A program made the translations under genes and the position numbers. DNA of 59,827 nt, taken from positions 1-59,827 of the forward strand of contig CAWGSK010000022.1 of the NCBI GenBank assembly GCA_963825055.1. Direction: 5' to 3'. Below are positions 33,801 to 50,245 of this stretch, piece after piece. Below the pieces are notes generated by a model that worked only from the letters and a program-made list of their open reading frames with translations, was not told where the DNA came from and did not search any database. The first letter of the stretch is position 1. Every line of letters begins with the position of its first letter. This DNA comes from an uncultured Gemmatimonadales bacterium. GTDB taxonomy: Bacteria; Gemmatimonadota; Gemmatimonadetes; Gemmatimonadales; GWC2-71-9.

Positions 33801-35012
33801 ATGCCCGATTCCCTGTCCCAGAATGTCGTCCTGCTGAAGGCCTCCGAAACCGTCGCCATCAGCAATGAAGCCAAGCGTCGCAAGGCTGCGGGCGAGAACG
33901 TCCTCGACCTCGGCGTCGGCGAGCCCGACTTCGACACGCCCCAGGCGGCGGCGCAGGCCGGCATCCGCGCGATCCAGGAAGGGAAGACGCGCTACCCGCC
34001 CAACATCGGCATCCTGGAGCTGCGCGCGGCGATGGCGGAGCACCTCTCGCTCCTGTCGCACGGCCGGCCGGTCAACCCGGACAACCTGATCATCAGCTCC
34101 GGGTCCAAGCAGGCCATCTTCAATGCCTGCTTCTGTCTCTTCGGCCCGAAGGACCGGGTCCTGATCCCGTCACCGGCCTGGGTGTCCTACCCGCAGATCA
34201 TTCACCTGTGCCGCGCGGAGCCGGTGGCGGTCCCGGGCGACCCGGAGTGGGGCCTCAAGGTGAGCGTGGCGGACCTGGAGCGCCACACAAACAAGCTCAC
34301 CCGCGGGCTCATCCTCTGTTCGCCGTGCAATCCCACCGGCGCCGTCTATACGCTGACCGAACTCAAGTCCATTGCGGAATGGGCGAAGAAGAACGACGTG
34401 TGGATCATCGCGGACGAGATCTACCGCCGCATTCACTACGGATCGGGCGCGGCGCCCTCGGTGCTCGACCTCCCGGACGAGCTGCTCGAGCGCACGGTGG
34501 TCATCTACGGGGCCAGCAAGGCCTATGCGATGACCGGCTGGCGGATCGGCGGCGCGCTTGCCCCCGGCTTCCTCGCCAGGAAGATGGCCGCGCTCCAGTC
34601 GCACACCACCACCGGCGCCAACCACCCGGCGCAGTGGGCGGCGGCGGCGGCGTTCAGCAGCCCGGAGGTGGAGGCCGACCTCGTGCGGATGGTGCAGGCG
34701 TTCCGGGCCCGCCGGGATCGCGTGGTCGAGCGCTTCCGCACGGAGGCGCCCGGTGTCGAGTTCGTGGATCCGCACGGCGCGTTCTATTTTTTCTTCCGGG
34801 TGGACGGGATCTCCGGCGAGGACGACTTCGGCGGGATGACCTTCTGTGAGCGCCTGATGCAGGAGGAGGGCGTGGCCCTGGTCCCCGGCGCCGCCTTCGG
34901 GGACGATCGCTGGGTCCGGCTCAGCTACGCCGTGGGCGACCGGGAACTGGACGATGCGCTTGACCGGATCATCCGCTTCATTCACCGGCAGGAATCGGCG
35001 GCGGCCGCATGA
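33801..35012 (+). CDS. PLP-dependent aminotransferase class I/II (aspartate aminotransferase type)
   Basis: GEPDFDTP, SPCNPTG, DEIY, SKAYAMTGWRIG. Confidence 0.95.
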   Translation: MPDSLSQNVVLLKASETVAISNEAKRRKAAGENVLDLGVGEPDFDTPQAAAQAGIRAIQEGKTRYPPNIGILELRAAMAEHLSLLSHGRPVNPDNLIISSGSKQAIFNACFCLFGPKDRVLIPSPAWVSYPQIIHLCRAEPVAVPGDPEWGLKVSVADLERHTNKLTRGLILCSPCNPTGAVYTLTELKSIAEWAKKNDVWIIADEIYRRIHYGSGAAPSVLDLPDELLERTVVIYGASKAYAMTGWRIGGALAPGFLARKMAALQSHTTTGANHPAQWAAAAAFSSPEVEADLVRMVQAFRARRDRVVERFRTEAPGVEFVDPHGAFYFFFRVDGISGEDDFGGMTFCERLMQEEGVALVPGAAFGDDRWVRLSYAVGDRELDDALDRIIRFIHRQESAAAA

Positions 35013-35560
35013 GCCCAAGGCTGATGAGCCTTGAAGCGCGCGTGGAAGCCCTGCACGGCGCGCTCCCTTCCATATCCTGGCGGTGGGACCCCGAGACGGA
35101 CATCCTCTCCGGCGCCTTTCGCGAGGATGCCCCCGACGACGACGGCTTCCGCGGCATGGTGGAGTTGACCGACGACAAGGGCTCCGTGATCGTGCTCGAC
35201 TTCGGGCGCGGGATGCTGAGCGGACTGGATGTCGTGGTCTGGCCCCCCGTGGAGTCCGACGCGGGACTGGTGCCGCCCCCCACCGGGAGCGACGCGCGGG
35301 TGATCCTGCCGCGCCGTGCCCCGCAGCGCGGGCCCGAGTCGCGTGAGGTGGAGACGCCCCTCCGGGTCAAGGCCAATCCGCGCCAGACGGTCTTCCACCT
35401 GCAGGTCGGCGAGGCGCCGCGTGCCCGCACGGTGCGCCTCGCGGAACGCTTCCTCGTCGAACTGGACGATGCGGGGCGCCTGGCCGGGTTCTGGCTGCTC
35501 GACGTCGAGGCCTTCCCGCTCGAGCTCGACCTCGAATCCGACCCGTCCGACCTGGCCTGA
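35009..35560 (+). CDS. Hypothetical protein, possibly two DUF2283-like repeats
   Basis: ATGA overlap with the aminotransferase; two similar halves ending VLDFGRGMLSGLDV and VELDDAGRLAGFWL. Confidence 0.7.
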   Translation: MSPRLMSLEARVEALHGALPSISWRWDPETDILSGAFREDAPDDDGFRGMVELTDDKGSVIVLDFGRGMLSGLDVVVWPPVESDAGLVPPPTGSDARVILPRRAPQRGPESREVETPLRVKANPRQTVFHLQVGEAPRARTVRLAERFLVELDDAGRLAGFWLLDVEAFPLELDLESDPSDLA

Positions 35561-35831
35561 GCGGCCTGCCGCGGGGCTCCCGACCGCAGGTTCCCGGAAC
35601 TCCCGCGCGCCAGTCGAACGCCTGGGCACCATGGTGTCTCCTGGTGCCCCATGGCGGCACCAAACTCTTGACAAGACGCCCAAAGAGCGCAAGTGTGAAC
35701 GCGTCCCTTCACGACGACGGTAGCGCAGACGCCCTTCATGCCCCTGCCGGCACCCGCGCCGGTCTTGGTTGAAGTTCTCCTGAGCGGAACCCTCCGCCCC
35801 GCAGCGCCAGCACATTCAGCCTTGTCCTCCC

Positions 35832-35874
35832 CGGCTCCGGTCAACTCGAGTGTCTCGAGTGTTGACCGGAGCCG
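35832..35874. promoter_or_regulatory. Long inverted repeat upstream of the cyc2-cox operon
   Basis: CGGCTCCGGTCAAC / GTTGACCGGAGCCG perfect 14-bp arms around an inner CTCGAG palindrome pair. Confidence 0.55.
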
Positions 35875-35931
35875 CAGTTGTATATGACATGCCGGATCCA
35901 GTATCCCGTTTCACCCAGCCCAGGAGGGCGT

Positions 35932-37416
35932 ATGCGCGACGGGTCTGTGAAGAAGGGTCGGCGAGGCTGGTTGCCGGGTTTGCTGCTCTGCAGTGGCCTG
36001 GGCGTGGGGTTGGTCTCGAACCTGGCGGCGCTGGCGCCTCCCAGTAACAGCACGACCCCCGACTACTCCAGGTATGCTGCGTATGTGGTGGCAGCGGGGG
36101 GCGTGGTTTCCACGCCGGCAGGTCTCACGCTGGCGGTGCACCGGACGGCCGCCATCCCCGCGTTTGCGCGGAAGTACAACATGCCGTGCTCGGCATGCCA
36201 CACCGCCTGGCCCGAGCTGAACGCCTTTGGCCAGCGCTTCAAGGACCGGGGCTACCAGCTCGGTAACGACCGTGACTCGCCCATCTGGGTCAACCCGTCA
36301 TACATCCCGTTCGCGATCCGCACGACCCCGGGCTGGCGCATGGAGCGCACCACCGATCAGCCCGTCGACGCCACGCCCGGGGATCCCGGCAGCGGGGTGG
36401 CGGTGCGCACCATCACACAGTCGGGCTTCGATATTTCGGGCGCCGACCTGCTCATGCTGGGGACGCTCTACAAGGACATCAGCTTCGGATTCGTGCCGAC
36501 CGTCGAGGATGGGGAGGGGGTCGGGATCGAGGCCGCCTTCGTCCGTTTCGACAACCTGCTCGGGTCCAGCTGGGCCAACCTGAAGGTGGGCAAGTTCGAG
36601 ATGGACAACATGCTCTCGGAGAAGCGGGGCATGATGCTCTCCAGCAATGGCGCCTTCTACCAGAGTTACCACTTCGTGCCGGTCGGCGACGGGACCGACT
36701 TCGGGCTGGGTGACAACCAGATTGGCGCTGAGTGGCAGGGCCATTCCGACAACAGCTATACCCGGTTCAGTGTCGCGGTTCTGAGCGGGACCGATGGCGT
36801 GCCGGGGCTGGTTGGGGGCAAGGGCTACGACGGCGCCCTCATGTTGAGCCAGGCCTTCGATGCCGGCCGGCTGGGCCTCCAGCGCGTGGGCCTGTACGGT
36901 TACCTCGGGCGACGACCCCTGTCCTTCGAGACCGTCGGCGGGGAGCCCGTGCCGGGGACCGGGACGGACAACAAGTCGTTCTACCGGGTTGGCGCCGTGG
37001 GCGACTTCTTCCTGGGCAGGCTCGAATTTCTCCCCCTGGTCATGCACGCGTCCGACGACAAGGACCTCGCGGGTGGGACCCGGGATGCCACATGGAACAG
37101 CGGCCTGCTGGAAATCCACTACTACGTCAACCCCCAGCTGGTGTTCACCCAGCGCAGCGAGATCATCCGGATGTCCGACCAGGCCGATCCGGGGTTGCCG
37201 AAGACCCTGGGCGATATCGACGCCTTCACCTTCGGCTACCGCTGGTATCCGATCATGTTCAGCCGGGCCGGGCTGGCGATGGTCGGGGAGCTCTCGTTCA
37301 CCAAGACGATCGGCACCATGCCCCTGAGCGAGGACGGGGCCGGCGTCGATCCGCTCACGCCGGGCACGGCCGTACACAGCACCAGCCTGCTTCTCGCTCT
37401 CGACTTCGACTTCTGA
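35932..37416 (+). CDS. cyc2: Cyc2-like outer-membrane monoheme cytochrome c-porin fusion
   Basis: AIPAFARKYNMPCSACHTAWPELNAFGQRFKDRGY matches the Cyc2 N-terminal signature; beta-barrel-like remainder ending LDFDF; AGGAGG RBS before ATG 35932. Confidence 0.8.
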   Translation: MRDGSVKKGRRGWLPGLLLCSGLGVGLVSNLAALAPPSNSTTPDYSRYAAYVVAAGGVVSTPAGLTLAVHRTAAIPAFARKYNMPCSACHTAWPELNAFGQRFKDRGYQLGNDRDSPIWVNPSYIPFAIRTTPGWRMERTTDQPVDATPGDPGSGVAVRTITQSGFDISGADLLMLGTLYKDISFGFVPTVEDGEGVGIEAAFVRFDNLLGSSWANLKVGKFEMDNMLSEKRGMMLSSNGAFYQSYHFVPVGDGTDFGLGDNQIGAEWQGHSDNSYTRFSVAVLSGTDGVPGLVGGKGYDGALMLSQAFDAGRLGLQRVGLYGYLGRRPLSFETVGGEPVPGTGTDNKSFYRVGAVGDFFLGRLEFLPLVMHASDDKDLAGGTRDATWNSGLLEIHYYVNPQLVFTQRSEIIRMSDQADPGLPKTLGDIDAFTFGYRWYPIMFSRAGLAMVGELSFTKTIGTMPLSEDGAGVDPLTPGTAVHSTSLLLALDFDF

Positions 37417-37429
37417 TCAGGAGGCCCGA

Positions 37430-38269
37430 ATGCGTCGCATCATCTTGAGGGCCTGCGCGGCAGGGAGTGTCCTGCTGCTGGCAGCCACCGGCCTCCTTGC
37501 CGCCCAGGCACCGGCCGTCGCTCACGTCGGGAGTGTCACCGGCAACGCCGCGGCGGGTGCGCGCGCCTACCGCCGGTACTGCATCGGTTGCCACGGCCCG
37601 GCGGGCGACGGGGCCGGGGAGAATGCCCAGTGGATCGATCCCAAGCCCCGGGACTTTACGGCCGCCGTGTTCAAGTGCCGCTCCACGCCCACCGGTACCC
37701 TGCCCACCGACGAGGATCTGTACCATTCGGTCTCGCGCGGTTTCGTGACCACCAACATGCCGGCCTGGGATCCCCTGACCCGGCAAAGCCGGGTGGACCT
37801 GGTGGCCTACATCAAGTCACTCTCCCCCCGCTGGGTCCAGGGGCCGGGCACACCGATCACCATCCCGCCGGAACCCGCATTGACCATGGAGAGCATCCTC
37901 CACGGCAGAGAGCTGTTCCAGCAGCTGGAATGCTGGAAGTGCCATGGGCCTGCAGGGCATGGTGACGGTCCGTCGGCCTCAGCGCTGATGGACAGCAAGG
38001 ACAACCCGATCCGCCCGTACAATTTCGCGTCCGGGTCCCGCTTCAAGTGCGGTAACAGCAACGAGGACATGTACCGGGATTTCATGACGGGCCTGGACGG
38101 CACGCCGATGCCGTCGTTCTCCGACAACATCGAGCCCGCCGACGCCTGGGACCTGGTGCATTTCCTCCGGACCCTGCAGCCGCCGCCCTCGCCGGAAGCC
38201 GCGCTGTGGCGGGCCTGGCTGCCCACCCATGCGGGGGACCTCAGCCCTATTGGTCCTGAGGGCCAGTAG
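37430..38269 (+). CDS. Periplasmic diheme cytochrome c
   Basis: Signal peptide; CIGCH..TNMPAW and CWKCH..TPMPSF (His/Met hemes). Confidence 0.92.
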   Translation: MRRIILRACAAGSVLLLAATGLLAAQAPAVAHVGSVTGNAAAGARAYRRYCIGCHGPAGDGAGENAQWIDPKPRDFTAAVFKCRSTPTGTLPTDEDLYHSVSRGFVTTNMPAWDPLTRQSRVDLVAYIKSLSPRWVQGPGTPITIPPEPALTMESILHGRELFQQLECWKCHGPAGHGDGPSASALMDSKDNPIRPYNFASGSRFKCGNSNEDMYRDFMTGLDGTPMPSFSDNIEPADAWDLVHFLRTLQPPPSPEAALWRAWLPTHAGDLSPIGPEGQ

Positions 38270-38302
38270 ATCACCGACTCACACTCTGGAGAAACGACTC
38301 TC

Positions 38303-39022
38303 ATGCGTTCCCCTGTCATCACTTCATTCGCCCTGCTGGCCGTGGCTGCGTCCGTGATGGGCGCCCTGGCCGCGCCGGACAGGAGTGCCGGTTCGATTGA
38401 CGGCACGGTCACCTTTACCGGCAAGCCGCCCAGGATGCGGCCGATCGACATGTCGAAGGAGCCGGGCTGTGCCGCCCAGCACGCGACGCCGGTCCTGAAC
38501 GAGACCATCGTGAGCGGCCCCGGCAACACCGTCCAGAACGTGGTGGTATACATCTCGGCGGGTGACCAGCCCACGCCTGCGCCCACCGAGGCGGTCCGCT
38601 ACGACCAGAAGGGCTGCGAGTACCTGCCCCACGTCGCGGCGATGCGTGCCGGGCAGCCGCTGGAGGTCTACAACGACGACAAGACCTCCCACAACATCCA
38701 CCCGATGGCGCGCGTGAACCCGGAGTGGAACAAGTCGCAGCCGCCGGGCGCGCCGCCGATCAAGACGACCTACGACAAACCCGAGTTCATCGCGGTCAAG
38801 TGCAATATCCACCCCTGGATGCACGGGTACTTTGCCGTGCTCGGGACCTCGCACTACGCCGTCACCGGCAACGACGGGAAGTTCAGCCTGGCCGGGCTGC
38901 CGCCGGGCAAGTACACGGTGACCGCGTGGCATGAAAAGTTCGGGACGCAGAGCCAGGAGGTCGAGGTGACCGCCAGCGGCGCTGTGACCGCGGACTTCGT
39001 GTTCAAGGCGCTGCCGTACTGA
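38303..39022 (+). CDS. Periplasmic cupredoxin-like protein within a carboxypeptidase-regulatory-like fold
   Basis: Signal peptide; SHNIH and CNIHPWM type-1 Cu ligand set; GKFSLAGLPPGKYTVTAWHE. Confidence 0.8.
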   Translation: MRSPVITSFALLAVAASVMGALAAPDRSAGSIDGTVTFTGKPPRMRPIDMSKEPGCAAQHATPVLNETIVSGPGNTVQNVVVYISAGDQPTPAPTEAVRYDQKGCEYLPHVAAMRAGQPLEVYNDDKTSHNIHPMARVNPEWNKSQPPGAPPIKTTYDKPEFIAVKCNIHPWMHGYFAVLGTSHYAVTGNDGKFSLAGLPPGKYTVTAWHEKFGTQSQEVEVTASGAVTADFVFKALPY

Positions 39023-39055
39023 GCGCGCTGGTTCAGGCCTAGCCGGAGAGGCACC

Positions 39056-39856
39056 TTGGGCAAACTGTTCGCCATTGTCCTGACGGTCATCACCGTCACG
39101 ACAGCCGCCATCTTCATGGCCCGCATCTGGTGGCTTCCCCCCGACATCTCCGTGCTCGGCATCGGGATCGACCACCAGATGATGGAGACGATGCTCGCCT
39201 CCGGGGTGCTGTTCATCCTGGCCCAGCTGATGCTGGCGCTCTTCGTCTGGCGCTATCGGGAGCGCGGGGATGGGCGGCCACTCAGGACATTCCCGGGCGG
39301 ATCCACCGCGATGGTGGTCCTGGCCACCGTACTGGTCGGCGCCGAGATCCTGGTGCTGTCGCTCGTGGGGACCAAGGTCTGGGGCCAGATCTTCCTTGCG
39401 CCGCCCAACCCCGCTGCGGTGAAGATCGACGTGCTGGCGGAGCAGTTTGCCTTTTATTTCCGCTATCCCGGCCCGGACGGAGCCTTCGGTGCCGTGCACC
39501 CCGAGCTCATCGACGATGCCAGCGGGAACTTCTTCGGCCTCGACCCTGCGAACGACACCACCGCGCGGGACGACGTCGTCTCCGCCTCGCTGGTCATCCC
39601 GGTCAATACCCCGATCCTGCTCACCATGCACTCGAAGGATGTCGGGCATGCCTTCTTCGTGCCCGAACTGAGAATCCAGCAGGACTTCGTGCCCGGCCTG
39701 GTCATTCCGCTCCAGTTTACCGCGACCCAGCTGGTGAAGAAGGAAATTGTCTGCACCCAGCTCTGCGGGCTGGGGCACTACAGCATGCGGGCCTATCTCG
39801 AGGTCCAGTCGGTGGACCAGTTCCACCAGTGGCTGGTGGACAACTCGCCATTCTGA
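39056..39856 (+). CDS. coxB: Cytochrome c oxidase subunit II
   Basis: TM helices; SKDVGHAF and CTQLCGLGHYSM CuA motif; TTG start. Confidence 0.93.
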   Translation: MGKLFAIVLTVITVTTAAIFMARIWWLPPDISVLGIGIDHQMMETMLASGVLFILAQLMLALFVWRYRERGDGRPLRTFPGGSTAMVVLATVLVGAEILVLSLVGTKVWGQIFLAPPNPAAVKIDVLAEQFAFYFRYPGPDGAFGAVHPELIDDASGNFFGLDPANDTTARDDVVSASLVIPVNTPILLTMHSKDVGHAFFVPELRIQQDFVPGLVIPLQFTATQLVKKEIVCTQLCGLGHYSMRAYLEVQSVDQFHQWLVDNSPF

Positions 39857-39882
39857 TCGTCTTTCCCTGAGAGGCCAGGCAC

Positions 39883-41691
39883 ATGCGTGATACTCCGGCG
39901 CAACCCGTACACAGTCCGGGTGAAACCTACGAGTACATCGCCCAGCTGAAGCACGCCCCGCCAACGGGATTCCTCCGGAAGCATGTGTTCAGCCTGGACC
40001 ACAAGGTTATCGGCAAGCAGTACCTCGACCTGGCGCTGGTGGCCGTGGTGATCGGCATGGCCCTCTCGTGGCTGATGCGCTTCCACCTGGCGTATCCCAG
40101 CACGCCGGTGCCCGGCCTGGGCACGGTGGCGCCCAACGGTGCGGCGGGTGGCGTCATGACGCCGGAACTGTACCTCTCCCTCATGACCATGCACGGCACG
40201 ATCATGGTGTTCTTCGTGCTGACGACCGCGCCCTTTGCCGGGTTCGGCAACTTCATGCTGCCCATCCAGATCGGCGCGGAGGACATGGCCTTCCCCCGCT
40301 TCAACATGATGTCCTTCTGGGTGACCTGCCTCGCGCTGCTCGTGCTGCTGGCCGCGTTCTTCGTTCCGGAGGGCCCGCCCCTGTCGGGATGGACCGCCTA
40401 TGCTCCGCTCAGCGCGCTGGGCAAGGATGCCGGCCCGGGGCAGGGGACGGGGCAGACGCTGTGGGCCGTGTCCATCGCCATCTTCTGCGTCGGCCAGTTG
40501 CTGGGTTCCCTCAACTTCATCGCAACCACGCTGGACCTCCGCACCAGGGGGATGACCTTCTCCCGCCTGCCGTACTCCACCTGGGCCTGGTTCATCACCT
40601 CGGTCATCGGCCTGATCGCCTTCTCCGTGCTGCTGCCCGCCTGCGTCATGCTCATCCTGGACCGGGTCGCGGGGACCAGCTTCTTCATTCCCGGCGGGCT
40701 GGTCGTCAGTGACCGGCTGCAGCCCCATGCGGGCGGGTCTCCCCTCCTCTGGCAGCACCTGTTCTGGTTCTTCGGGCACCCGGAGGTGTATATCGCGATC
40801 CTGCCGGGATTCGGCATCGTGTCCCATATCCTCCCGGTGTTCGCGCGCAAGCCCCTGCTCGGGCCCAGGGTAGTGATCGCCTGCATGGTCGCGATCGGCT
40901 TCCTCAGCTACACCGTCTGGGGACACCACATGTTCCTGAGCGGAATGAATCCGCTGGCCGCCACCCTGTTCTCCGTGCCCACGCTCGTCATCACCATCCC
41001 CGCGACCATCACGACCCTGCTCTGGATCGGGACGGTGTACGGCGCCAGGCTGCGCCTGACGACCCCAGCCCTGTTCTGTCTCGGGTTCATCTCGGTGTTC
41101 GTGAGCGGTGGCATCAGCGGCTTCTTCCTGGCCCAGCCGTCCATCGATACCTACCTCCACGGTACCTACTTCGTGGTCGGCCACTTCCATTTCGTCATGG
41201 GAGTGGCGGCCATGTTCGGCATCTTCGCGGGCACCTACTTCTGGTTCCCGAAGATATTCGGGCGGATGATGAACGAACCGCTCGGCAAGCTGCACTTCTT
41301 CCTGACGCTGATCGGGGTCTACTGCATCTTCATGCCGATGCACTATCTCGGGCTGGCCGGCAATATCAGGCGCTATTCCGCCTTCACCGACGATTACATG
41401 AAGGGCTCGCTCCCGCTCCACCGATTCATCACCATGGCGGCGCTGTTTACCGGCGCCGTGCAGTTCATCTTCCTCTTCAACCTGGTCTGGAGCCGGATGC
41501 GGGGGGCCAGGGCACCCGACAATCCCTGGCAGGCAACCAGTCTCGAGTGGACGGTGCCCTCGCCCCCGCCGTTCGACAACTTCGGCGGACACCCGCCGGT
41601 GGTGACCCACGGCCCCAACGAGTACGGGGTGAGCGGACCGGACGGCGACTACGTGATGCAGACGTCGGTGACTCCTCCGGCGGCCACCTGA
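39883..41691 (+). CDS. coxA: Cytochrome c oxidase subunit I, A1 type
   Basis: TMHGTIMVF, WFFGHPEVY, VWGHHMF, VVGHFHFV. Confidence 0.97.
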   Translation: MRDTPAQPVHSPGETYEYIAQLKHAPPTGFLRKHVFSLDHKVIGKQYLDLALVAVVIGMALSWLMRFHLAYPSTPVPGLGTVAPNGAAGGVMTPELYLSLMTMHGTIMVFFVLTTAPFAGFGNFMLPIQIGAEDMAFPRFNMMSFWVTCLALLVLLAAFFVPEGPPLSGWTAYAPLSALGKDAGPGQGTGQTLWAVSIAIFCVGQLLGSLNFIATTLDLRTRGMTFSRLPYSTWAWFITSVIGLIAFSVLLPACVMLILDRVAGTSFFIPGGLVVSDRLQPHAGGSPLLWQHLFWFFGHPEVYIAILPGFGIVSHILPVFARKPLLGPRVVIACMVAIGFLSYTVWGHHMFLSGMNPLAATLFSVPTLVITIPATITTLLWIGTVYGARLRLTTPALFCLGFISVFVSGGISGFFLAQPSIDTYLHGTYFVVGHFHFVMGVAAMFGIFAGTYFWFPKIFGRMMNEPLGKLHFFLTLIGVYCIFMPMHYLGLAGNIRRYSAFTDDYMKGSLPLHRFITMAALFTGAVQFIFLFNLVWSRMRGARAPDNPWQATSLEWTVPSPPPFDNFGGHPPVVTHGPNEYGVSGPDGDYVMQTSVTPPAAT

Positions 41692-41692
41692 G

Positions 41693-42289
41693 ATGACCAC
41701 CCTGAGAGCGACGGCGCCGTCACCGGCGCGAACCGGCGTGTGGATTGGCATCGGGGCCGTCGCGATGTCCTTCGCGGCCTACACCAGCGCCCTCATGGTG
41801 CGGCAGGGGGGCGCGACCGACTGGGTGCACCTCAGGCTGCCTCCAGTCCTGTACGTCAACACGGTGGTCCTGCTTGCCAGCAGCGTCACCCTGCTCCTCG
41901 GACGGCGCCGCGTCCTGGCCGGGTGGCCGACAGTCGGCGGGGAGGACGCCAGGAATGCCGGCATGGCCCGGCAGGGGGTCGCCTGGCTGGCCGTCACGCT
42001 GGCGCTCGGGTTGCTGTTCCTTGCGGGGCAGGTCCTCGCCTGGCGGCAGTTGGCTGCCCAGGGACTGTATCTCGCCACCACGCCCGGCAGCGCATTCTTC
42101 TATGTCTTCACGGTGCTCCATGCGCTGCACGTGACCGGTGGCATCATGGCGCTGGCCTACGCCATTCGACGGCTCCATGTCGCCGTCGACGCACCCCCCC
42201 TGGGGGCGCTCAGCGCCGTCGCCCTGTACTGGCACTTCATGGGGGCGCTGTGGCTGTATCTCCTGGCCATACTCGCACTGCGGCTGTAG
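41693..42289 (+). CDS. coxC: Cytochrome c oxidase subunit III family, copy 1
   Basis: NTVVLLASSVT, FFYVFTVLHALHV, LYWHFM. Confidence 0.9.
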   Translation: MTTLRATAPSPARTGVWIGIGAVAMSFAAYTSALMVRQGGATDWVHLRLPPVLYVNTVVLLASSVTLLLGRRRVLAGWPTVGGEDARNAGMARQGVAWLAVTLALGLLFLAGQVLAWRQLAAQGLYLATTPGSAFFYVFTVLHALHVTGGIMALAYAIRRLHVAVDAPPLGALSAVALYWHFMGALWLYLLAILALRL

Positions 42290-42307
42290 GCCGCCGCCGG
42301 AGGTGAC

Positions 42308-42937
<630 letters not shown>

Positions 42938-42947
42938 GGGAGCCACG

Positions 42948-43268
42948 ATGAACGACGATCCTGTGACAGCCAACGCGACCGACCACCCCCCCCGGATGCG
43001 CCAGTATATCGTGGTGTGGGTCGGGCTGCTCCTCATCGTGGCGGTCGAGGTAGGGCTGACCTTTGCGCGGTTGCCGGTGGGAACCATGCTGGCAGCCCTG
43101 CTCGCCCTGGCGCTGCTGGAGGCCGGGCTGGCGGTGACTTACTTCATGAACCTCAGGTACGAGCGGCGCATACTGGCCTTTACCCTCCTCCCCGTGCTCC
43201 TGTTCGTGCTGTTCATGATGAACCAGGTGTGGTGGGACGCCGTGCGGCTGCGCTCCCTCCACCCGTAG
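42948..43268 (+). CDS. coxD: Cytochrome c oxidase subunit IV family
   Basis: Three TM helices, YFMNLRYE motif, operon position. Confidence 0.85.
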   Translation: MNDDPVTANATDHPPRMRQYIVVWVGLLLIVAVEVGLTFARLPVGTMLAALLALALLEAGLAVTYFMNLRYERRILAFTLLPVLLFVLFMMNQVWWDAVRLRSLHP

Positions 43269-43291
43269 GCTTCCAGCGAAGGCCTCGATTC

Positions 43292-43420
43292 ATGCAGATG
43301 CCGATGGCGCTCCCGACAATCCACTCGATGCTCCCGGCCATGGTGATCATCGCCCTGCCCGCCTTCCTGATCTGCGCCGGCGTCACCTTCATGGTGTATC
43401 GCCGCCGTCCCCGCGACTGA
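43292..43420 (+). CDS. Small single-TM membrane protein
   Basis: MQMPMALPTIHSMLPAMVIIALPAFLICAGVTFMVYRRRPRD; hydrophobic helix with basic tail; start uncertain. Confidence 0.5.
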   Translation: MQMPMALPTIHSMLPAMVIIALPAFLICAGVTFMVYRRRPRD

Positions 43421-43559
43421 CCTGTCACGATCGGGGGCGGTTCCTCCACGCCCTCCGCCGCCCTTACCTTACCCCCATGCTGCCCCCGTTCGTCCGCCGG
43501 GCCGTGGCCGCCGGCGGCCCCCGTCCACGCATGGCGGTCCGACCCCGCTCCACGGCCTG

Positions 43560-44528
43560 ATGCGGGCCGCCGCCGTCCATCGGCTCCGCCGGGCTGCGGC
43601 GGACCTTGGCCTGACGCCGGTCGCCGTCGTCCCCCCGCCCTACGATGCCCGGCTCGAGGAGATCGAGACCCGCTCGGCGCGCCTGGTCGAGGATGTCGAG
43701 CTTACCATGCACGGGGTCGGTGAGAGCGAGCCCTGGCGCGAGCCGGTGGCCTTCCTGGACGGTACCCAGCGCTACGGCATCTTCGCCTACGACGGGTGTT
43801 CGCCGGTGGCCTGGGCCACCATCGCCGCCGCGGTGCGGGAACGGCGGGACCGGAAATTCCGCACCGGGACCGCACTCCGGCAGCACCTGCTGGTGGGGCG
43901 CGCCGGGGTGCTGGACCGACTGGCCGGCATCACGGACGCCACTGACCTGCTGCCCATTCCCGACGACATTCCGCTCCATCCCCATCGTGAGATGCAGGCA
44001 ATCCGGCGTGTGGTGGACACGGCGCGCGGCCGGCTGGAGCTGGAGGCCGGCTCCGCGTGGCGTCGTCGGGCCGATGGCTGGCTGCTGGTGGACGGTTCCC
44101 TCGGGGTCAGCTCCTCCTGGGCCCGTGACCCACGGATGCTCGGCATCGTCAAGAGCCACGCGTCGCTGCCGTTCGAGGACGACGACCTGGCCCGCTATCT
44201 CCGGCTGCCCCTCGCGCACCGCACCAGCGTCTTTGCCCCGGATACCAGCACGTACAGCCCGGTGTACTCCTGGGCGCTCAGGCTCTGGGAGCCCGACGGT
44301 CTGGACGTGTTCCATGGCCTGATCCGGGTGGAGGCGCCGGCCACTGAGCGCACGCTGGAGGAAGTGGACCGGGTCGCGCGCCACCTCCTGGCCGAGCGTT
44401 CGCCGCTCAGCACCCCGGACGGACGATGGGACCGGTTGCTCTACGGCTTCCATGACGTCGAGCGATTTCTGAAGGCCGGAGGCGGTGCTCCTCCGGCGCT
44501 CCGCGCCGCTACCTTTCAGGGCACATGA
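43560..44528 (+). CDS. nurA: NurA-like nuclease
   Basis: VAFLDGTQR, LLVDGSL, GIVKSH RNase H-fold motifs; coupled to a HerA gene. Confidence 0.75.
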   Translation: MRAAAVHRLRRAAADLGLTPVAVVPPPYDARLEEIETRSARLVEDVELTMHGVGESEPWREPVAFLDGTQRYGIFAYDGCSPVAWATIAAAVRERRDRKFRTGTALRQHLLVGRAGVLDRLAGITDATDLLPIPDDIPLHPHREMQAIRRVVDTARGRLELEAGSAWRRRADGWLLVDGSLGVSSSWARDPRMLGIVKSHASLPFEDDDLARYLRLPLAHRTSVFAPDTSTYSPVYSWALRLWEPDGLDVFHGLIRVEAPATERTLEEVDRVARHLLAERSPLSTPDGRWDRLLYGFHDVERFLKAGGGAPPALRAATFQGT

Positions 44529-46471
44529 CCACGCCAGAGACCCTGCCGCCTATCGGTCGCGTCGTCGCGACCGAGCTCAAGCCGACCACCCCCCACCAGT
44601 TCCTCTTCTGGACCGCGGTGGACGCGCCGATCGGCATCGGCGCCATCGTGCGGGTGGAGACGGCCGACCGGGTTGTGCATGGTGTGGTGACCGAGGGGTT
44701 CGCGTATGCCGACCTCGACACGCCCATGCATGACGTGATCGGCGCCGAGGGCGATCCCGCCCGTGCCGCGGCCAGTCCCAGCGAGCGCACGGAGATCCGG
44801 CTCTACTCGGCTGCCGTGCTCCGCCAGACACCGGAGGAGCCGCTGCAGCCGGTGCCGCTGGCCGCAGTGCACCTGGCCACCGATGAGGACGTGGCGCTGG
44901 CGCTCCGGATGGATGCCTTCACCACGGGCGAACGCCCGACGGGCGTGCCCGCCGGCGTATACCGGGCCGGCGGGCACGAGGCCCCGGTTCAGCTGGACAC
45001 CGACTTCCTGCTGGGTCCGGAAGCCGCGCACCTCAACATCACCGGTGTCTCCGGCCTTGCCACCAAGACCAGCGCGGTGGAGTTCCTGCTGCTCTCGCTC
45101 TTCCAGAAATTCCCGGTCCACAAGGGCTCGATCGCGGCGGTGTGCTTCAACGTGAAGGGTCCCGACCTGCTCTTCCTGGACCAGCCGGGCGCGCTCAACG
45201 CCGAGGACCTCAGGCTCTACGACCGGTTGGGCCTCGAGCCGGAGCCGTTCCGGAACGTGCGCTACTACGCGCCCTACCGGCCTGATGGAATCAACCTGAA
45301 CACGCTGCGCACGAACGAGGCGCTCTCGGCGAACACGGAGCCGCTCGTCTGGGGGCTTCGCGAGGTGCTGGACTACGCCGAGGTCGTGCTGAACCGGGAT
45401 GACCTGGACGCGAAGGCCGATGCGTTCATCGACTTCCTGACCGACCGCGTGGTCGGGAAGACGTTCGAGGACCCGTCGCTCGGCCGCACGTTCCAGGTGC
45501 AGAGCTTCGCGGATCTGGAGCAGTTCTTCCGGGCCATCTTCGATTTCATGGAGAGCGTCGGACGGGGTGGGGAAGTCTGGCGCACGCACCACGTCGCCAC
45601 CATCCGGAAGGTCCGGAACCGGCTCGGCAACATCAGCGTGCGCTCGAAGGGGCTGGTGACCGACGAGGGCGCGGCGAACGATCTGCCCTGGGGGCAGTTC
45701 GAGGACCGGGGTATCTACTGCCTCGACATCGCGGGGCTGGATCCGCTGGCCCAGGATCTCGTCTTCGCCCGGGTCGTGTCCCACCTTCGCGAGCATCTCG
45801 AGCGGCGCGACCTCGGGGTGGACCATGTCATCGTCTTCGTGGACGAGCTGAACAAGTACGCCCCCGCCGACGGCGCGGACACCTACGTCAAGAAGATGCT
45901 GCTCGATCTCTCCGAGCGGGGGCGCTACCTCGGGCTGGTGCTGTTCAGCGCCCAGCAGTTCCGCTCCCAGGTGCTCCGGCGGGTGGTGGGCAACGCCGGC
46001 ACCGGCATCTTCGGGCGGATGGACATGGACGAGCTCGCCACACCGGGCTACACGACGCTCTCGGCGGCCACCAAGATCAAGCTCGCCACCCTCCCCAAGG
46101 GCGAGTTGATGATCCGGCACCCGCACTTCACCCAGCCGGTCTTCCTCCGCTTCCCGCGCCCGCCCATCATGGCAGGGCGGGAGGGCGTCGAGCGGTTCCC
46201 GCCCGAGCCCGACCTCGCCCTGGACGCCGCCGTGCACCGGCATCTCCGCCAGCTCGACCGGAAGGTCACCCGCCAGGCGGTCGCGGAAGCCATCGAGGGC
46301 CATCGGGAGGAGGACATTCTCCGCGCCCTCAATGCGACGCGCCGGACCCACCCCGAGCGGGTGCTGCCGTTCTTCATCGCCCAGCTCGGCCAGCGCGTGC
46401 GCGCCGGGGAGCCGGTCCGCACCGGGGGCGTGCCGCCGGTGAAGCGGGTGAGGGATCCGTATGGGGAGTAG
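44525..46471 (+). CDS. herA: HerA/FtsK-family ATPase with N-terminal HAS barrel
   Basis: IGRVV N-terminal barrel; HLNITGVSGLATKTS Walker A variant; IVFVDELNKY Walker B; ERGRYLGLVLFSAQQ Arg finger. Confidence 0.85.
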   Translation: MTTPETLPPIGRVVATELKPTTPHQFLFWTAVDAPIGIGAIVRVETADRVVHGVVTEGFAYADLDTPMHDVIGAEGDPARAAASPSERTEIRLYSAAVLRQTPEEPLQPVPLAAVHLATDEDVALALRMDAFTTGERPTGVPAGVYRAGGHEAPVQLDTDFLLGPEAAHLNITGVSGLATKTSAVEFLLLSLFQKFPVHKGSIAAVCFNVKGPDLLFLDQPGALNAEDLRLYDRLGLEPEPFRNVRYYAPYRPDGINLNTLRTNEALSANTEPLVWGLREVLDYAEVVLNRDDLDAKADAFIDFLTDRVVGKTFEDPSLGRTFQVQSFADLEQFFRAIFDFMESVGRGGEVWRTHHVATIRKVRNRLGNISVRSKGLVTDEGAANDLPWGQFEDRGIYCLDIAGLDPLAQDLVFARVVSHLREHLERRDLGVDHVIVFVDELNKYAPADGADTYVKKMLLDLSERGRYLGLVLFSAQQFRSQVLRRVVGNAGTGIFGRMDMDELATPGYTTLSAATKIKLATLPKGELMIRHPHFTQPVFLRFPRPPIMAGREGVERFPPEPDLALDAAVHRHLRQLDRKVTRQAVAEAIEGHREEDILRALNATRRTHPERVLPFFIAQLGQRVRAGEPVRTGGVPPVKRVRDPYGE

Positions 46472-46492
46472 GGTGGGGAGAGAAGCGTGTTT

Positions 46493-46602
46493 CGTTCGTT
46501 AAGTCGTTGAGGACGTTGAGTCGTTGAGTCGTTCCTGAAATCATGCACCCGGATCACACGATTCAACTACTCAACCACTCAACCACTCAACTGCTCAACC
46601 AT
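46493..46602. repeat. Opposed octamer arrays (GTCGTTGA)n ... (TCAACCAC)n
   Basis: Forward and reverse-complement arrays around a ~40-bp spacer between herA and mre11. Confidence 0.85.
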
Positions 46603-46649
46603 TCTACCACCCCCTTGCCTCCCCCTCCCATTCCCCCCATTCTCCCCCT

Positions 46650-47828
46650 GTGAAGCTCGCGCACCTCGCCGATTCGCATCTCGGATTCCGTCAGTACCAC
46701 CGGCAGACCCCCGGCGGCTTCAACCAGCGTGAGGCCGACGTTGGGCAGGCCTTTCGGCGGGCCATTGACGGCATCATCAGCGCCGCTCCCCGGGCTATCG
46801 TCATCGCCGGGGACCTTTTTCATTCCGTGCGCCCCAGCAACCCGGCCATCCTCTTTGCCTTCCGGGAGTTCCAGCGGGTCCGGCTTGCCCTGCCGGAGTC
46901 GCCCATCATCCTGGTTGCCGGGAATCACGATACGCCGCGCTCGACTGAGACAGGATCGATCCTCGAGCTGTTCGAGACGCTGGGTGTCGAGGTGGTATCG
47001 GGCGAAGCCCGGCGCCTGGAGTACCCCGACCTGGACCTGAGCGTCCTGGCGGTTCCCCATCAGTCCCTCATCGCCCCCAGCCGGCCGCTCCTGCGGCCCG
47101 AGGGCGACGCCCGGTACCAGGTGCTGGTTACGCACGGCGAAGTGGACGGGATGCTCCCGATCGAACGGACCGGCCTGGAATACGGCGGAGCCCTGCTTTC
47201 CCCGGCGGAACTCGGTGGCGCCGACTGGACGTACGTCGCGCTCGGGCACTATCACGTGGTGCGCGAGGTGCTGCCCCGTGTCTGGTACTCGGGGGCGACG
47301 GAGTACGTCAGCACCAACCCCTGGGGCGAGGCGCGGGAACAGGCGGAGCAGGGTATTCCGGGCAAGGGCTGGCTGCTGGCGGACCTTGCGGAGGCCACCA
47401 CGTCGTTCCAGCCGGTGGAGCTGGCCCGGCGCGTGATCGATCTCGAGGCGATCGACGCCGACGAGCAGACCGCTGAGGGCGTGGACGCGATGATCCGTGC
47501 GCGCATCAAGGGAACCGGAACCATCGAGGGGCAGATCGTACGGCAGGTGCTCTGCAACATTCCCCGCCATGTCGCCCGGGAGCTGGACCACGCCGCGATC
47601 CGCGGCTGGAAGGCAGAAGCCCTGCACTTCCACCTGGACCTCCGCCGGCCCGAGGCGCGGCGCATCACCGGTGTCGGCACGCCGGGGCGAAGGCAGACCC
47701 TGGCCGAGGTAGTGGAGGGCTACCTCGTCCAGCGCCCGCTGGACGCCGGGATCGACCGCGACCGGTTCGTGCAGCTCGGCGTCTCGCTGCTCGCCGAGGC
47801 GGAGGGCGAGCCGGGAGCGTCGGGATGA
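46650..47828 (+). CDS. sbcD: Mre11/SbcD metallophosphoesterase nuclease
   Basis: HLADSHLG, IAGDLFH, AGNHD, THG, ALGHYH, YSGATE. Confidence 0.93.
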   Translation: MKLAHLADSHLGFRQYHRQTPGGFNQREADVGQAFRRAIDGIISAAPRAIVIAGDLFHSVRPSNPAILFAFREFQRVRLALPESPIILVAGNHDTPRSTETGSILELFETLGVEVVSGEARRLEYPDLDLSVLAVPHQSLIAPSRPLLRPEGDARYQVLVTHGEVDGMLPIERTGLEYGGALLSPAELGGADWTYVALGHYHVVREVLPRVWYSGATEYVSTNPWGEAREQAEQGIPGKGWLLADLAEATTSFQPVELARRVIDLEAIDADEQTAEGVDAMIRARIKGTGTIEGQIVRQVLCNIPRHVARELDHAAIRGWKAEALHFHLDLRRPEARRITGVGTPGRRQTLAEVVEGYLVQRPLDAGIDRDRFVQLGVSLLAEAEGEPGASG

Positions 47829-50245
47829 TCATCCAGCGGCTCCGCCTGCTCAACTTCCGCCAGCACGAGGACACCGAACTGATCCTCGGCGCCGGACTCA
47901 CCGGTATCATCGGCCCGAACGGGGCAGGGAAGACCACCCTGCTCGAGGCGATCGCCTGGTCCATCTACGGCACGCCCGCGGCCCGGGGCACCCGCGAATC
48001 CATCCGTCGGCGTCGCGCCCCACCCCGCTCGCCGGTCCGGGTGGAGCTGGAGTTTGCCCTCGGGCCGCATCAGTATCGCGTCGTCCGCACGCTGCACGGC
48101 GCCGAGCTCTACCAGGATGGCGATCCGTCACCGATCGTGACCAGCCTCGGCGCCGTCTCCGACCGCCTCGAGCGCATCCTCGGCATGACGCGCGAGGAGT
48201 TCTTCAACACTTACTTCACCAGCCAGAAGGAACTGGCGGTGATGGCGGCGATGACGGCGCCCGAGCGGGCGCAGTTCCTCTCGCGCGTGCTGGGGTACGA
48301 GAAGATCCGTCGGGCGCAGGACCGGCTGAAGGACCGGCGCACCGCGCTCCGGAGCCGGCTCCAGACCCTGGAGGGCGCCTTGCCAAACGCCGAGTCGCTC
48401 GCCTCGGACTTCGACAAGGCGCGGTCGCGGCTGGCGGAGGCTGAGGAGAAGGAAAGGATCTCCCGGGAGGCACTGGAGGCGGCCGGACGCAGGCTGGAGG
48501 AGGTCCAGCCGAAGTGGGAGGAGGTGCAGCGGCTCAAGGAGCAGGTTGCGTCGCTCGAGGGCGACCTGCGGCTGGCGGAACACAAGGTGGGCGCGGCCCG
48601 GGAGCGGCACCAGCAGCTCGACCGCCAGCTGGCCGAGGCGCTGACGGCCCGCGGCCGCCTGACGGCGATCGAGACCGATCTGGCGCCGCTCACCGGGCTC
48701 CGCGAGGAGCGCGGGCAGCTCGATGAGCGGCAGCAGGCGGTCGCGGCGCGACGCGGGTTCCAGAGCCAGCTGGATGACCTGCGTCATCGGCGGAAGGAGG
48801 TGGCCGCGGAGCTTGCGCAGATCCCCGCACCGGAGGTGCTGGCCGCGGCCGGCGAGCGACGCGATACACTTGCCGCGCGGCGGACCGAACTCTCCGCTGC
48901 CATCGAGCAGCGGCAGAACGAATGGGTGCGTGACCTGCAGGAGGCGAAGACCCGGCGCCAGACCCTGCTGGACCAGTACAAGGACATTCAGGAGCAGCAG
49001 GACCGCATCCGCGAGGCCGGGAGCGACGGTGCGTGCCCCACGTGCGCACGGCCGCTGGGTGACGAGTTCGACCAGGTGCTCGGCCTGCTCGACCGCCAGC
49101 TGGAGGAAGTCAAGTTCAACGGGAACTATTTCCGGCAGCGGATCGAGCAACTCACGGATACGCCGGCGGACCTGGCCGCCCTGACCACCGAGCACGCGAC
49201 AGTGGAAGAAGACCTCTCCTCGGCGCGGGACGAACTGACCCGTTTCGGGGCGGCGGCGGGCAAGCAGGAAGCCCTGACCGCGGAGGCCGCCCGGCTCGAT
49301 GAACGGATTACCGCACTGGAGCAGGAACTGGCGGCATCGGAAGCGCCGTACGACGCGGAGCGCCACGCCGAGGTTCGCGCCCTGATCGTGAAGCTGGAAC
49401 CGCTCGCCCTGGAGGCGGTGCGGCTCCAGGTCCTGGCGGACCGGGCCGAGGAGCTGGTGCAGGAGGCCGAGTCGGCCGAGCGTGACATGAGCGAGGTGGA
49501 AGGACAGGTCACGGCACTTCGTGAGCAGATGAAGTCGCTGGGGTTCAGCGAGGACGCCTGGGCCTGGGCCAGACGTGAGGCGGAGGAGGCGGAGCGGTCG
49601 CGTCGATTGGTGGAGGTGGACACGGTGCGGTGTGGCGCCGAGCGTTCGGCGGCCGCCGAGGCGGTGCAGGGGCTCGAACGCCGTCAGGCGCAGCGGGAGG
49701 TACAGGCGCGGGAGATCGACCAGGCCGCCGGGGACCTGGCCCTGCACAACGCGCTGGACCGGGCCTTCACCGACCTGCGCACCGACCTCAATGCCACCCT
49801 TCGCCCGGACCTGTCGGAGCTGGCATCGGGCTTCCTGCGCGACCTCACCAACGGGCGGTACTCCGACCTCGAGCTGGACGAGAGCTACATGGCCGTCGTG
49901 CTGGAAGACGGCGACGCCAAGCCCGTGATCTCCGGCGGCGAGGAGGACGTGGTGAACCTGGCGCTCCGCCTGGCCATCAGCCAGATGATCGCGGAGCGGG
50001 CGGGGCAGCCGCTGTCGTTGCTGGTGCTGGACGAGATCTTCGGGTCGCTGGACGAGGAGCGCCGCGCGGGTGTGCTCGAGTTGCTGCGCGGCCTGGCCGA
50101 CCGGTTCCCGCAGGTCATCCTGATCACCCACATCGAGTCGGTGCGGGAAGGCTTCGATCGCGTCATCCGGGTCGAGGTGGACGTAGGGCGTGGCGCCGCC
50201 ACGGCCCGGGAGGACACGGAGGCTCCCGATGGCCTGGCTGCCTGA
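47825..50245 (+). CDS. sbcC: Rad50/SbcC SMC-like ATPase
   Basis: GPNGAGKTT, coiled coils with CPTC zinc hook, ISGGE signature, LVLDEIFGSLD, ITH. Confidence 0.93.
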   Translation: MIIQRLRLLNFRQHEDTELILGAGLTGIIGPNGAGKTTLLEAIAWSIYGTPAARGTRESIRRRRAPPRSPVRVELEFALGPHQYRVVRTLHGAELYQDGDPSPIVTSLGAVSDRLERILGMTREEFFNTYFTSQKELAVMAAMTAPERAQFLSRVLGYEKIRRAQDRLKDRRTALRSRLQTLEGALPNAESLASDFDKARSRLAEAEEKERISREALEAAGRRLEEVQPKWEEVQRLKEQVASLEGDLRLAEHKVGAARERHQQLDRQLAEALTARGRLTAIETDLAPLTGLREERGQLDERQQAVAARRGFQSQLDDLRHRRKEVAAELAQIPAPEVLAAAGERRDTLAARRTELSAAIEQRQNEWVRDLQEAKTRRQTLLDQYKDIQEQQDRIREAGSDGACPTCARPLGDEFDQVLGLLDRQLEEVKFNGNYFRQRIEQLTDTPADLAALTTEHATVEEDLSSARDELTRFGAAAGKQEALTAEAARLDERITALEQELAASEAPYDAERHAEVRALIVKLEPLALEAVRLQVLADRAEELVQEAESAERDMSEVEGQVTALREQMKSLGFSEDAWAWARREAEEAERSRRLVEVDTVRCGAERSAAAEAVQGLERRQAQREVQAREIDQAAGDLALHNALDRAFTDLRTDLNATLRPDLSELASGFLRDLTNGRYSDLELDESYMAVVLEDGDAKPVISGGEEDVVNLALRLAISQMIAERAGQPLSLLVLDEIFGSLDEERRAGVLELLRGLADRFPQVILITHIESVREGFDRVIRVEVDVGRGAATAREDTEAPDGLAA

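Follow-up and report, generated by a model that had tools for sequence, protein, structure and literature searches.

Cyc2 proteins are recognised by the motif AXPXFAR[Q/K][T/Y] before a single CXXCH and PXL after it, a length of at least 365 amino acids, a 16-strand porin like OprP or OprO, and a cleavable signal peptide (PMC8406198). In Acidithiobacillus, the rus operon runs cyc2-cyc1-cup-coxBACD-rus-ctaT-ctaB-ctaA (PMC10654088). In all three Cyc2 clusters, those members that have been assayed biochemically oxidise Fe(II) (PMC8406198), and, as an earlier note on this DNA had cautioned, many homologues occur in taxa not known as iron oxidisers (PMC8406198, PMC8446621); homologues in Gemmatimonadota have been mentioned (PMC11316326).

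The closest description is a 2020 preprint, which already described clusters resembling the rus operon, with COX3 doubled, in MAGs of Gemmatimonadetes (bioRxiv 10.1101/2020.03.01.968255). In these clusters Cyc1 is replaced by other cytochromes, the duplicated COX3 resembles that of subtype a-III, and ctaA lies elsewhere in the genome; the authors proposed that ancestral lineages of acidophilic iron oxidisers were the source of a transfer. Matched by its text description, the cassette analysed here is very probably of the same type. The accessible text of the preprint makes no mention of K-channel loss or of a CoxB glutamate for this clade.

Layout and distribution of the cassette

The window, the whole stretch of 59,827 nucleotides that was analysed, contains a run of nine genes on the plus strand with gaps of 13, 33, 33, 26, 1, 18, 10 and 35 bp, the close co-orientation that the earlier note had described, and with GC3 of 0.85-0.91. 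The flanking gaps measure 371 bp on the upstream side and 139 bp on the downstream side. The cassette as a whole (35561..43559) is inserted between host genes at 35009-35560 and 43560-44528, which are near neighbours in relatives: in 25 of the 27 relatives having both, they lie on one contig, 6-2190 bp apart. A scan of the locus gave no promoters and one terminator-like site, inside coxB, which is at or below shuffle level.

A synteny survey of the kind the earlier note had proposed found the order cyc2-diheme-cupredoxin-coxB-coxA in 66 of 80 fetched loci; seven others end before an oxidase could show, and seven have room for one yet are oxidase-free. Such recurrence is not chance. Cyc2 and CoxA orthologues occur in the same 7 of 60 relatives, each pair on one contig, and 120 sampled acidobacterial genomes yielded one extra orthologue, again with the whole operon. 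The cassette, found in soil Gemmatimonadota and Acidobacteria, is mobile, its genes moving as one block. The closest homologues have Gemmatimonadales affinity, in keeping with the Gemmatimonadota host that had been thought probable from the sequence. Searches of plasmid records for named reference sequences returned nine records with short heme-domain matches only, and generic ctaD; of ten sequence clusters looked up, two bore the name of an organism.

The last gene (43304..43420), a hydrophobic ORF of 38 amino acids, has a tblastn match in the same place in 21 of 80 loci and no Pfam match; it is a probable accessory subunit. An in-frame ATG lies slightly upstream of it.

The Cyc2-family porin, diheme cytochrome and copper protein

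The first gene (35932..37416) encodes a monoheme cytochrome-porin of 494 amino acids. The cytochrome-porin signature noticed earlier is borne out, since the protein carries AIPAFARKY-x3-CSACH-x3-PEL, as the published Cyc2 motif specifies, and the pattern PxFAR[QK][TY]-x3-CxxCH-x3-PxL is present in 76 of the 77 homologues that were aligned; the remaining one is without its N-terminus. A hydrophobic, signal-like N-terminus is followed by about 40 extra residues, a heme domain at approximately residues 75-114 (CxxCH 86-90) and a barrel at 128-494 with a terminal Phe. The AlphaFold2 (AF2) model has 16 strand elements (pTM 0.73, the heme domain being of low confidence when folded alone), and its top Foldseek matches are PorB (E 1.5e-12) and OprP (9.4e-12), so that the barrel which the earlier note had asked to see is predicted. 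Judged by sequence and model, gene 1 is a Cyc2-family member on every criterion testable. It shares the motif, single heme and 16-strand OprP-like barrel with Cyc2 PV-1, A. ferrooxidans Cyc2 and Leptospirillum Cyt572 (PMC8406198), but differs from them in the N-terminal extension, which is found in the Gemmatimonadota proteins.

Database searches with gene 1 gave no Pfam or NCBIfam match and no solved relative in the PDB, barrel included. The ESM Atlas returned unnamed clusters, with Acidobacteriota the commonest phylum, and one cluster with Porin_O_P in 20% of its members. The barrel is unrelated in sequence to that of a second Cyc2-like gene of the same genome. Candidate heme ligands are H247, H271 and H396, each conserved in 77/77 homologues; M442, considered as the sixth ligand, was dropped with conservation in 66/77 only.

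The second gene (37430..38269) encodes a diheme His/Met cytochrome c (PF00034/PF13442) with a signal-like N-terminus, in which both CxxCH motifs, M110 and M227 are conserved in 76/76 homologues. Its best solved relative is 6h5l_B (E 2.6e-55), which we take to be Kuenenia Kustc0457, and no c4-type chain is found among its five PDB matches at E up to 0.01. On that identification, a homologous diheme cytochrome also precedes a type-1 copper gene in the anammox kustc0457-kustc0456 pair, whereas the neighbour there is an HAO-like protein rather than a porin or oxidase (PMC12053348).

For the complex of Cyc2 with the diheme cytochrome, the prediction scored 0.71, against 0.02 for the best of three controls. 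Of 157 solved pairs 116 reach the mark for this score, as against 2 of 215 mismatched pairs; with own alignments used and hemes carried along, these counts are an approximate guide here. The runs shared 92% or more of their contacts, and partner pLDDT was no lower than 90. The modelled interface sets Cyc2 residues 82-114 against residues 48-54 and 104-120 of the diheme cytochrome, around both heme motifs; the Cyc2 heme domain is predicted to dock on heme 1. Because no solved Cyc2 relative was found, it is unlikely that the predictor was recalling a like complex. The modelled pair lends itself to a specific assay with two proteins, one of which is a natural acceptor.

In the third gene product (38303..39022), a cupredoxin domain at approximately residues 95-180 is inserted in a transthyretin-like CarboxypepD_reg sandwich (AF2 pLDDT 92). 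In VIA comparisons it aligned with plastocyanin (Z 10.1, rmsd 1.9, 85 aligned), amicyanin (Z 9.7, rmsd 2.0, 85 aligned) and a carboxypeptidase D domain (Z 11.4, rmsd 1.8, 80 aligned). The predicted copper site is of type 1, with a cupredoxin fold, a His and Cys-x2-His-x2-Met, and its ligands H130/C167/H170/M173 are conserved in 72/72 homologues. The cofactors that had been proposed for the second and third genes are in keeping with these conserved ligands. Identity with the single-domain Cup/AcoP is ruled out by the two-domain architecture; AcoP gave a TMq of 0.24-0.25 and ranked 34th or lower.

The terminal oxidase and its K-channel

The next five genes give Pfam matches to COX2, COX1, COX3, COX3 and COX4_pro, the coxB-coxA-coxC-coxC-coxD order previously noted: CoxB with a CuA site (39056..39856, PF00116), an A-family CoxA with GHPEVY (39883..41691, PF00115, E 2e-132), two copies of CoxC (41693..42289 and 42308..42937, both PF00510) and CoxD, or subunit IV (42948..43268, PF03626). 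Alignment to 1m56_A shows that CoxA has the six His ligands, Y303 and the D-channel residues D134/N141/E301, and these His ligands, the cross-link Tyr, GHPEVY and the D-channel Asp/Asn/Glu are kept in 53/53 homologues.

The K-channel is another matter. In Rhodobacter numbering, K362 is replaced by T377, T359 by A374 and D412 by G427; the Lys is present in 0/53 CoxA homologues, and the Thr position is Ala in 51/53. The entry Glu of subunit II is found in 0/67 homologues and is V87 in this CoxB. In alignment with the Paracoccus subunit II, the CuA site consists of H198, C233, C237, H241 and M244 with the Glu replaced by Q235; the His/Cys/Cys/His/Met set is conserved in 64-65 of 65 homologues, and the Glu position is Gln in 64/65. 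The earlier assignment to type A1 therefore stands for GHPEVY, the His ligands and the D-channel, but not for the K-channel Lys, Thr and entry Glu, and on these residues the enzyme is not a canonical A1 oxidase.

The K pathway supplies protons during reduction (PMC8361435). An invariant glutamate, CoxB E97, lies deeper in helix 2 than the lost entry Glu, and a deep subunit-II Glu/Asp is present in 113/113 Lys-less but 0/23 Lys-retaining oxidases, with three Lys-less lineages sampled. It is possible that this residue is a compensatory swap for the lost Lys, and on the strength of the covariation the channel is probably rebuilt from the invariant helix-VIII Ser/Thr together with E97. We found no description of a subunit-II Glu replacing the Lys in the literature searched, most subscription journals lying outside that search. 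Independent of iron, a natural Lys-less A-family oxidase with a covarying subunit-II Glu provides a direct test of the part that the K-channel plays; if the Lys-to-Glu swap is true, the lineages that carry it are natural variants testing the need for the lysine.

Oxidases of rus operons and of Zetaproteobacteria are also Lys-less (PMC8239418), as is the COX of Ferrigenium according to a preprint, and the Lys is missing as well in oxidases of non-iron taxa (PMC8239418). Among aligned oxidase rows 51 of 137 are Lys-less, many rows being fragments or fusions, and in another Lys-less clade the Cyc2 motif occurs in 0/80 loci, many of them short. The idea that Lys loss marks iron oxidisers was dropped in view of this Cyc2-free clade and the non-iron taxa. 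Loss of Mg-site residues was likewise dropped as a Cyc2 adaptation, since Lys-retaining, Cyc2-free sisters (L182, L183) share it.

In the oxidase trees, which include no named Acidithiobacillus, Mariprofundus or Leptospirillum sequence, the enzyme is placed beside Lys-retaining acidobacterial oxidases, in contrast to the transfer proposed in the preprint. It shares with the Acidobacteriota subtype a-III oxidases, its sister group, the coxB-A-C-C-D order and 58-62% CoxA identity; unlike the cassette, these have both the Lys and the entry Glu but not the deep Glu, and no Cyc2 motif occurs in the stretches fetched for them. By these alignments and trees, we consider the oxidase to derive from acidobacterial oxidases with doubled COX3 and to have lost the Lys, a point absent from the earlier note. 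A search of the ESM Atlas with CoxA returned generic COX1 only.

The likeness to the rus operon that had been suggested can now be delimited. The functional gene order and the Cyc2-family first gene are shared, as is the loss from the oxidase of the K-channel Lys, subunit-II entry Glu and CuA Glu. There is no sign, however, of Cyc1 or Cup orthology, neither rus nor cta genes are in the cassette, coxC is doubled, and the A1 motif differs from the rus oxidases, which are listed as A2 (PMC8239418). With a diheme cytochrome that has no c4-type match among its five PDB matches, a two-domain cupredoxin distinct from AcoP, and an oxidase that branches from acidobacterial ones, the cassette is rus-like by analogy only.

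Electron donor and direction of flow

A lone cyc2 is insufficient to fix the likely direction of electron flow, but an O2 reductase encoded alongside it in one operon does so, and we consider it likely that the cassette carries electrons from outside the cell to O2. The reductant, small and dissolved and most likely Fe2+, would enter the Cyc2 barrel and reduce the single periplasmic-side heme, as reasoned from the Cyc2 family; through the modelled contact the electron would pass to the diheme cytochrome at its heme 1, and then, judging by gene order and cofactors, via heme 2, the type-1 copper protein or both to CuA, heme a and a3-CuB, where O2 would be reduced. Such a path would bypass the quinone pool. 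RuBisCO gave no match in the 87% complete genome, another departure from the rus-operon organisms, and for these two reasons the chain most likely tops up the proton-motive force of an organotroph (lithoheterotrophy) rather than supporting autotrophy. To call the wire self-contained, as the earlier note did, is too strong: heme A synthase (CtaA) is on another contig (C30), and 7 of 80 loci are oxidase-free.

That Fe(II) is the physiological donor has, in our estimate, an even chance, and the complete iron-fed inward path from Cyc2 through the diheme cytochrome and Cu/CuA to O2 is similarly balanced. Several observations weigh against the iron reading. Ca. Acidoferrum, for which a role in Fe(III) reduction was proposed on genomic grounds (PMC7980381), carries the operon; oxidase-free loci exist; Lys loss is not an iron signature; and weak Cyc2-like matches are widespread, in 40 of 61 genomes of the order. 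A broader proposal, that two phyla of uncultured soil organotrophs are lithoheterotrophic Fe(II) oxidisers with an independently assembled rus-like chain, the Lys being replaced by a subunit-II helix-2 Glu as in two other Lys-less lineages, is tentative and rather doubtful. Should Fe(II) prove to be the donor, uncultured organotrophs, which marker surveys usually discount, would join the aerobic iron oxidisers of ordinary soils.

The same inward path might instead be fed by Mn(II), Cu(I), humic quinones in reduced form, or electrons shuttled from minerals or from other cells, an alternative we regard as unlikely though the best placed of those considered. The hosts live in soil and are not shown to oxidise iron, what Cyc2 does in organisms other than known iron oxidisers is described as uncertain (PMC8406198, PMC8446621), and no solved protein matches the barrel in sequence; however, Cyc2 proteins reported as tested oxidise Fe(II), and a barrel of 16 strands with a single heme fits a small ion in solution (PMC8406198). 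Many acidic Cyc2 residues are conserved, but so are basic ones, counted irrespective of position. Somewhat less likely is a protective sink, in which Fe(II) or O2 would be cleared at the cell surface with little energy conserved, because the Lys-less oxidase would run slowly or uncoupled. Cyc2 has been proposed to act in detoxification (PMC8446621), the canonical K pathway is missing, and the genome holds other oxidases, a Lys-retaining caa3 among them; yet the D-channel is intact in all 53 homologues, the candidate substitute Glu is invariant, and organisms living on iron have Lys-less oxidases in their rus operons (PMC8239418).

Two loose modules, with Cyc2, diheme cytochrome and cupredoxin feeding a shared periplasmic pool and the oxidase serving mainly as an alternative terminal oxidase for quinol-derived electrons, seem improbable. 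The oxidase-free loci would fit, as would an ACIII-like cluster that we read in the genome and the occurrence of diheme-cupredoxin pairs beside Lys-retaining, Cyc2-free oxidases (L187, L189, L190), but the one-to-one co-occurrence of Cyc2 and CoxA, the extra acidobacterial orthologue with its whole operon and the movement of the genes as one block argue against it. Finally, an outward path from Cyc2 to Fe(III) chelates under anoxia, with the oxidase as an alternative outlet, is very improbable despite the acidobacterial carriers proposed as Fe(III) reducers (PMC7980381) and a potential of -130 mV reported for one Cyc2 (PMC13692758), for the cassette is without a quinol-oxidising gene, its His/Met hemes, type-1 copper and O2 reductase form a high-potential chain, and the genome has separate 17-19-heme clusters.

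The cassette and its distribution

The gene layout claimed by the earlier note was borne out: the nine-gene cassette occupies 35932..43420 on the + strand with intergenic gaps of 1-35 bp, and encodes Cyc2 (35932..37416), a diheme cytochrome c (37430..38269), a type-1 cupredoxin (38303..39022), coxB-coxA-coxC-coxC-coxD and a small ORF. The synteny survey that the note proposed gives the same picture, with the order cyc2-diheme-cupredoxin-coxB-coxA in 66 of the 80 best-scoring loci (of at least 526 confirmed relatives); seven others end before the oxidase position and seven are without an oxidase. By record title, these loci are chiefly from Gemmatimonadota, with Acidobacteriota second. Cyc2 and the diheme, mostly with the cupredoxin, occur with no oxidase nearby in L064, L065, L068, L072, L082, L083 and L088, all from Acidobacteriota. 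The cassette copies L021, L028 and L039, filed under Bacillota or Chloroflexi titles, may be mis-binned contigs, because the L039 copy is identical to one Gemmatimonadetes copy. Runs recorded as soil metagenomes contain near-identical DNA (four runs with a share >0.2, from two studies).

A Cyc2 orthologue is present in 7 of 60 relatives, and a CoxA orthologue in the identical seven. Among 120 genomes sampled from the phylum of the genome G061 (acidobacterial, going by the title of locus L077), one further genome has an orthologue, with the full operon, and 14 have related oxidases with no Cyc2 motif within the fetched stretches. Because the flanking genes lie 6-2190 bp apart in 25 of the 27 relatives that have both, including three with the cassette at another site, we conclude that the cassette moves as a single block.

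Cyc2, its predicted partner and the proposed electron path

Gene 1 has the motif and length set for Cyc2 by Keffer et al. (PMC8406198, available portion), and the core pattern recurs in 76 of 77 aligned homologues. The barrel with a heme plug, a check named in the earlier note, was recovered in part: the AF2 model comprises 16 strand elements, with PorB and OprP as structural matches, but does not resolve the heme domain. Cyc2 has no solved structure according to the accessible text of PMC13741234. Most Gemmatimonadota copies carry an extension of 20-45 residues between the signal-like segment and the motif (window 35932-36150), often bearing a YxAY-like stretch and a His; it is missing from several acidobacterial copies. 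Contig C8 of the source genome (39483-40862; L209:2484-3863) carries another Cyc2-like cytochrome-porin, which stands alone and has PSYARQT as its variant motif. Its match to gene 1 is limited to the heme domain, and 40 of the 61 genomes of the order have weak matches of this broad type.

The best solved relative of the diheme is 6h5l_B (E 2.6e-55), which we take to be Kuenenia Kustc0457. In anammox bacteria, the kustc0457 gene likewise adjoins a type-1 cupredoxin gene (PMC12053348, in part). The cupredoxin of the cassette has an amicyanin-like ligand loop and is set inside a transthyretin-like sandwich. When mature Cyc2 and the diheme were modelled with three hemes, the complex passed, with a score of 0.71 against 0.02 for the best control; the mark is reached by 116 of 157 solved pairs and 2 of 215 mismatched ones, a calibration that applies only roughly here. 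Contact agreement is at least 92% and partner pLDDT at least 90, and the predicted interface is formed by both heme-binding segments together with short turns of the barrel. The modelled contact speaks for binding of the two proteins but is not proof of it.

Electrons would enter at Cyc2, pass to the diheme through the predicted contact, and continue to CuA and O2; the putative donor is Fe(II), and protons would be pumped via the D-channel. The analysis shows the cassette's parts, ligands, folds, synteny and channel substitutions. The cassette quite probably performs electron uptake to O2; for Fe(II) as the donor, we consider the chances about even. The chain described in the earlier note is real, coherent and like the rus operon (the Acidithiobacillus iron-oxidation operon) in its working, but the cassette itself falls outside the rus operon family.

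The K-channel and the origin of the oxidase

CoxA retains every His ligand, the Tyr and the D-channel in 53 of 53 homologues (those among the 80 loci with coverage of at least 75%). The K-channel Lys is present in none of them, and the Thr position of the channel is Ala in 51. CoxB is without the entry Glu and has an invariant Glu, E97, ten residues deeper. Among operons with both subunits readable, a deep Glu/Asp in CoxB helix 2 is found in 67/67 of the cassette's own clade (offset +10), in 44/44 of a second clade without the Lys (+7; 44 of the 80 loci there were readable) and in 2/2 of a third (+16), versus 0/23 Lys-retaining operons. It is possible that the deep residue compensates for the lost Lys in a swap; we offer this as a hypothesis only, because the covariation represents three lineages, not 113 events, and the offsets differ.

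The Lys is also missing from rus-operon and Zetaproteobacterial oxidases, and from those of non-iron taxa (PMC8239418, supplementary file 5). Lys loss alone was rejected as evidence for iron oxidation, given these non-iron taxa and the second Lys-less clade, in which 0 of 80 loci have the Cyc2 motif. By reading, the neighbours of that clade's oxidases are ACIII- or Rieske/b-type genes. In one of its loci (L106:2887-11317), the oxidase comes after genes for a monoheme cytochrome, an unassigned protein of 468 aa with a C-terminal Phe, a diheme and a cupredoxin; this is possibly a split cytochrome-plus-porin parallel, with the 468-aa protein as putative porin.

Quick ML trees place the Lys-less clade as the sister group of acidobacterial oxidases that have doubled COX3 and retain the Lys; within these trees, Gemmatimonadota rows are nested inside acidobacterial ones. 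An AU test against acidobacterial monophyly gave p = 0.038, for 43 chosen rows and a group defined after the first tree was seen. The midpoint-rooted Cyc2 tree gives no decision on the direction of transfer. The data suggest transfer from Acidobacteriota but do not establish it; a separate origin of the cassette is probable.

The cluster type was already noted in 2020: the accessible part of bioRxiv 10.1101/2020.03.01.968255 reports Gemmatimonadetes clusters of rus-like type in which the cytochromes are not Cyc1 and COX3 is doubled, and its figure or supplement may already include these loci. Cyc2 has been reported in Gemmatimonadota (PMC11316326) and Acidobacteria (PMC8446621), and Ca. Acidoferrum is presented as an Fe(III) reducer with cyc2 unmentioned in the main text (PMC7980381), each source being cited from its available portion. 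Our literature search, in a collection with few subscription journals, returned no account of the remodelled K-channel with a covarying CoxB Glu, of a modelled natural partner for the cassette's Cyc2, or of the cassette's probable separate origin.

The host genome

The source genome, of which the window is contig C22, is 87% complete and 6% contaminated, and a search of it for RuBisCO, the one fixation route covered, gave no match. CtaA is on a different contig from the cassette. There are six COX1-family matches, among them a Lys-retaining caa3 found twice, on contigs 95% identical; ba3-, NorBC-, NosZ- and ACIII-like genes were recognized by reading. The cassette is an accessory branch of a versatile respirer.

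On contig C12, the locus L207 (22195-32612) has multiheme genes with 7, 18 and possibly 16 CxxCH, accompanied by a weakly MtrB/PioB-like gene (E 0.046) and adjoined by a NiFe hydrogenase with cytochrome b; it is a candidate second porin-cytochrome conduit. Elsewhere on C12, L208 (126603-132490) encodes 17- and 19-heme cytochromes next to an FAD/4Fe-4S oxidoreductase, with a second copy on contig C24. Within the window, 43560-50245 contains two unassigned genes and, after them, homologues of Mre11 and Rad50; this order of repair genes is of archaeal type, here in a bacterium. The two leading genes, which gave no Pfam match, are presumably NurA- and HerA-like, and the first is present in 38 of 60 relatives. 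Finally, two stretches of ~380 bp in the window, 6419-6788 and 8365-8736, are 85% identical to one another.
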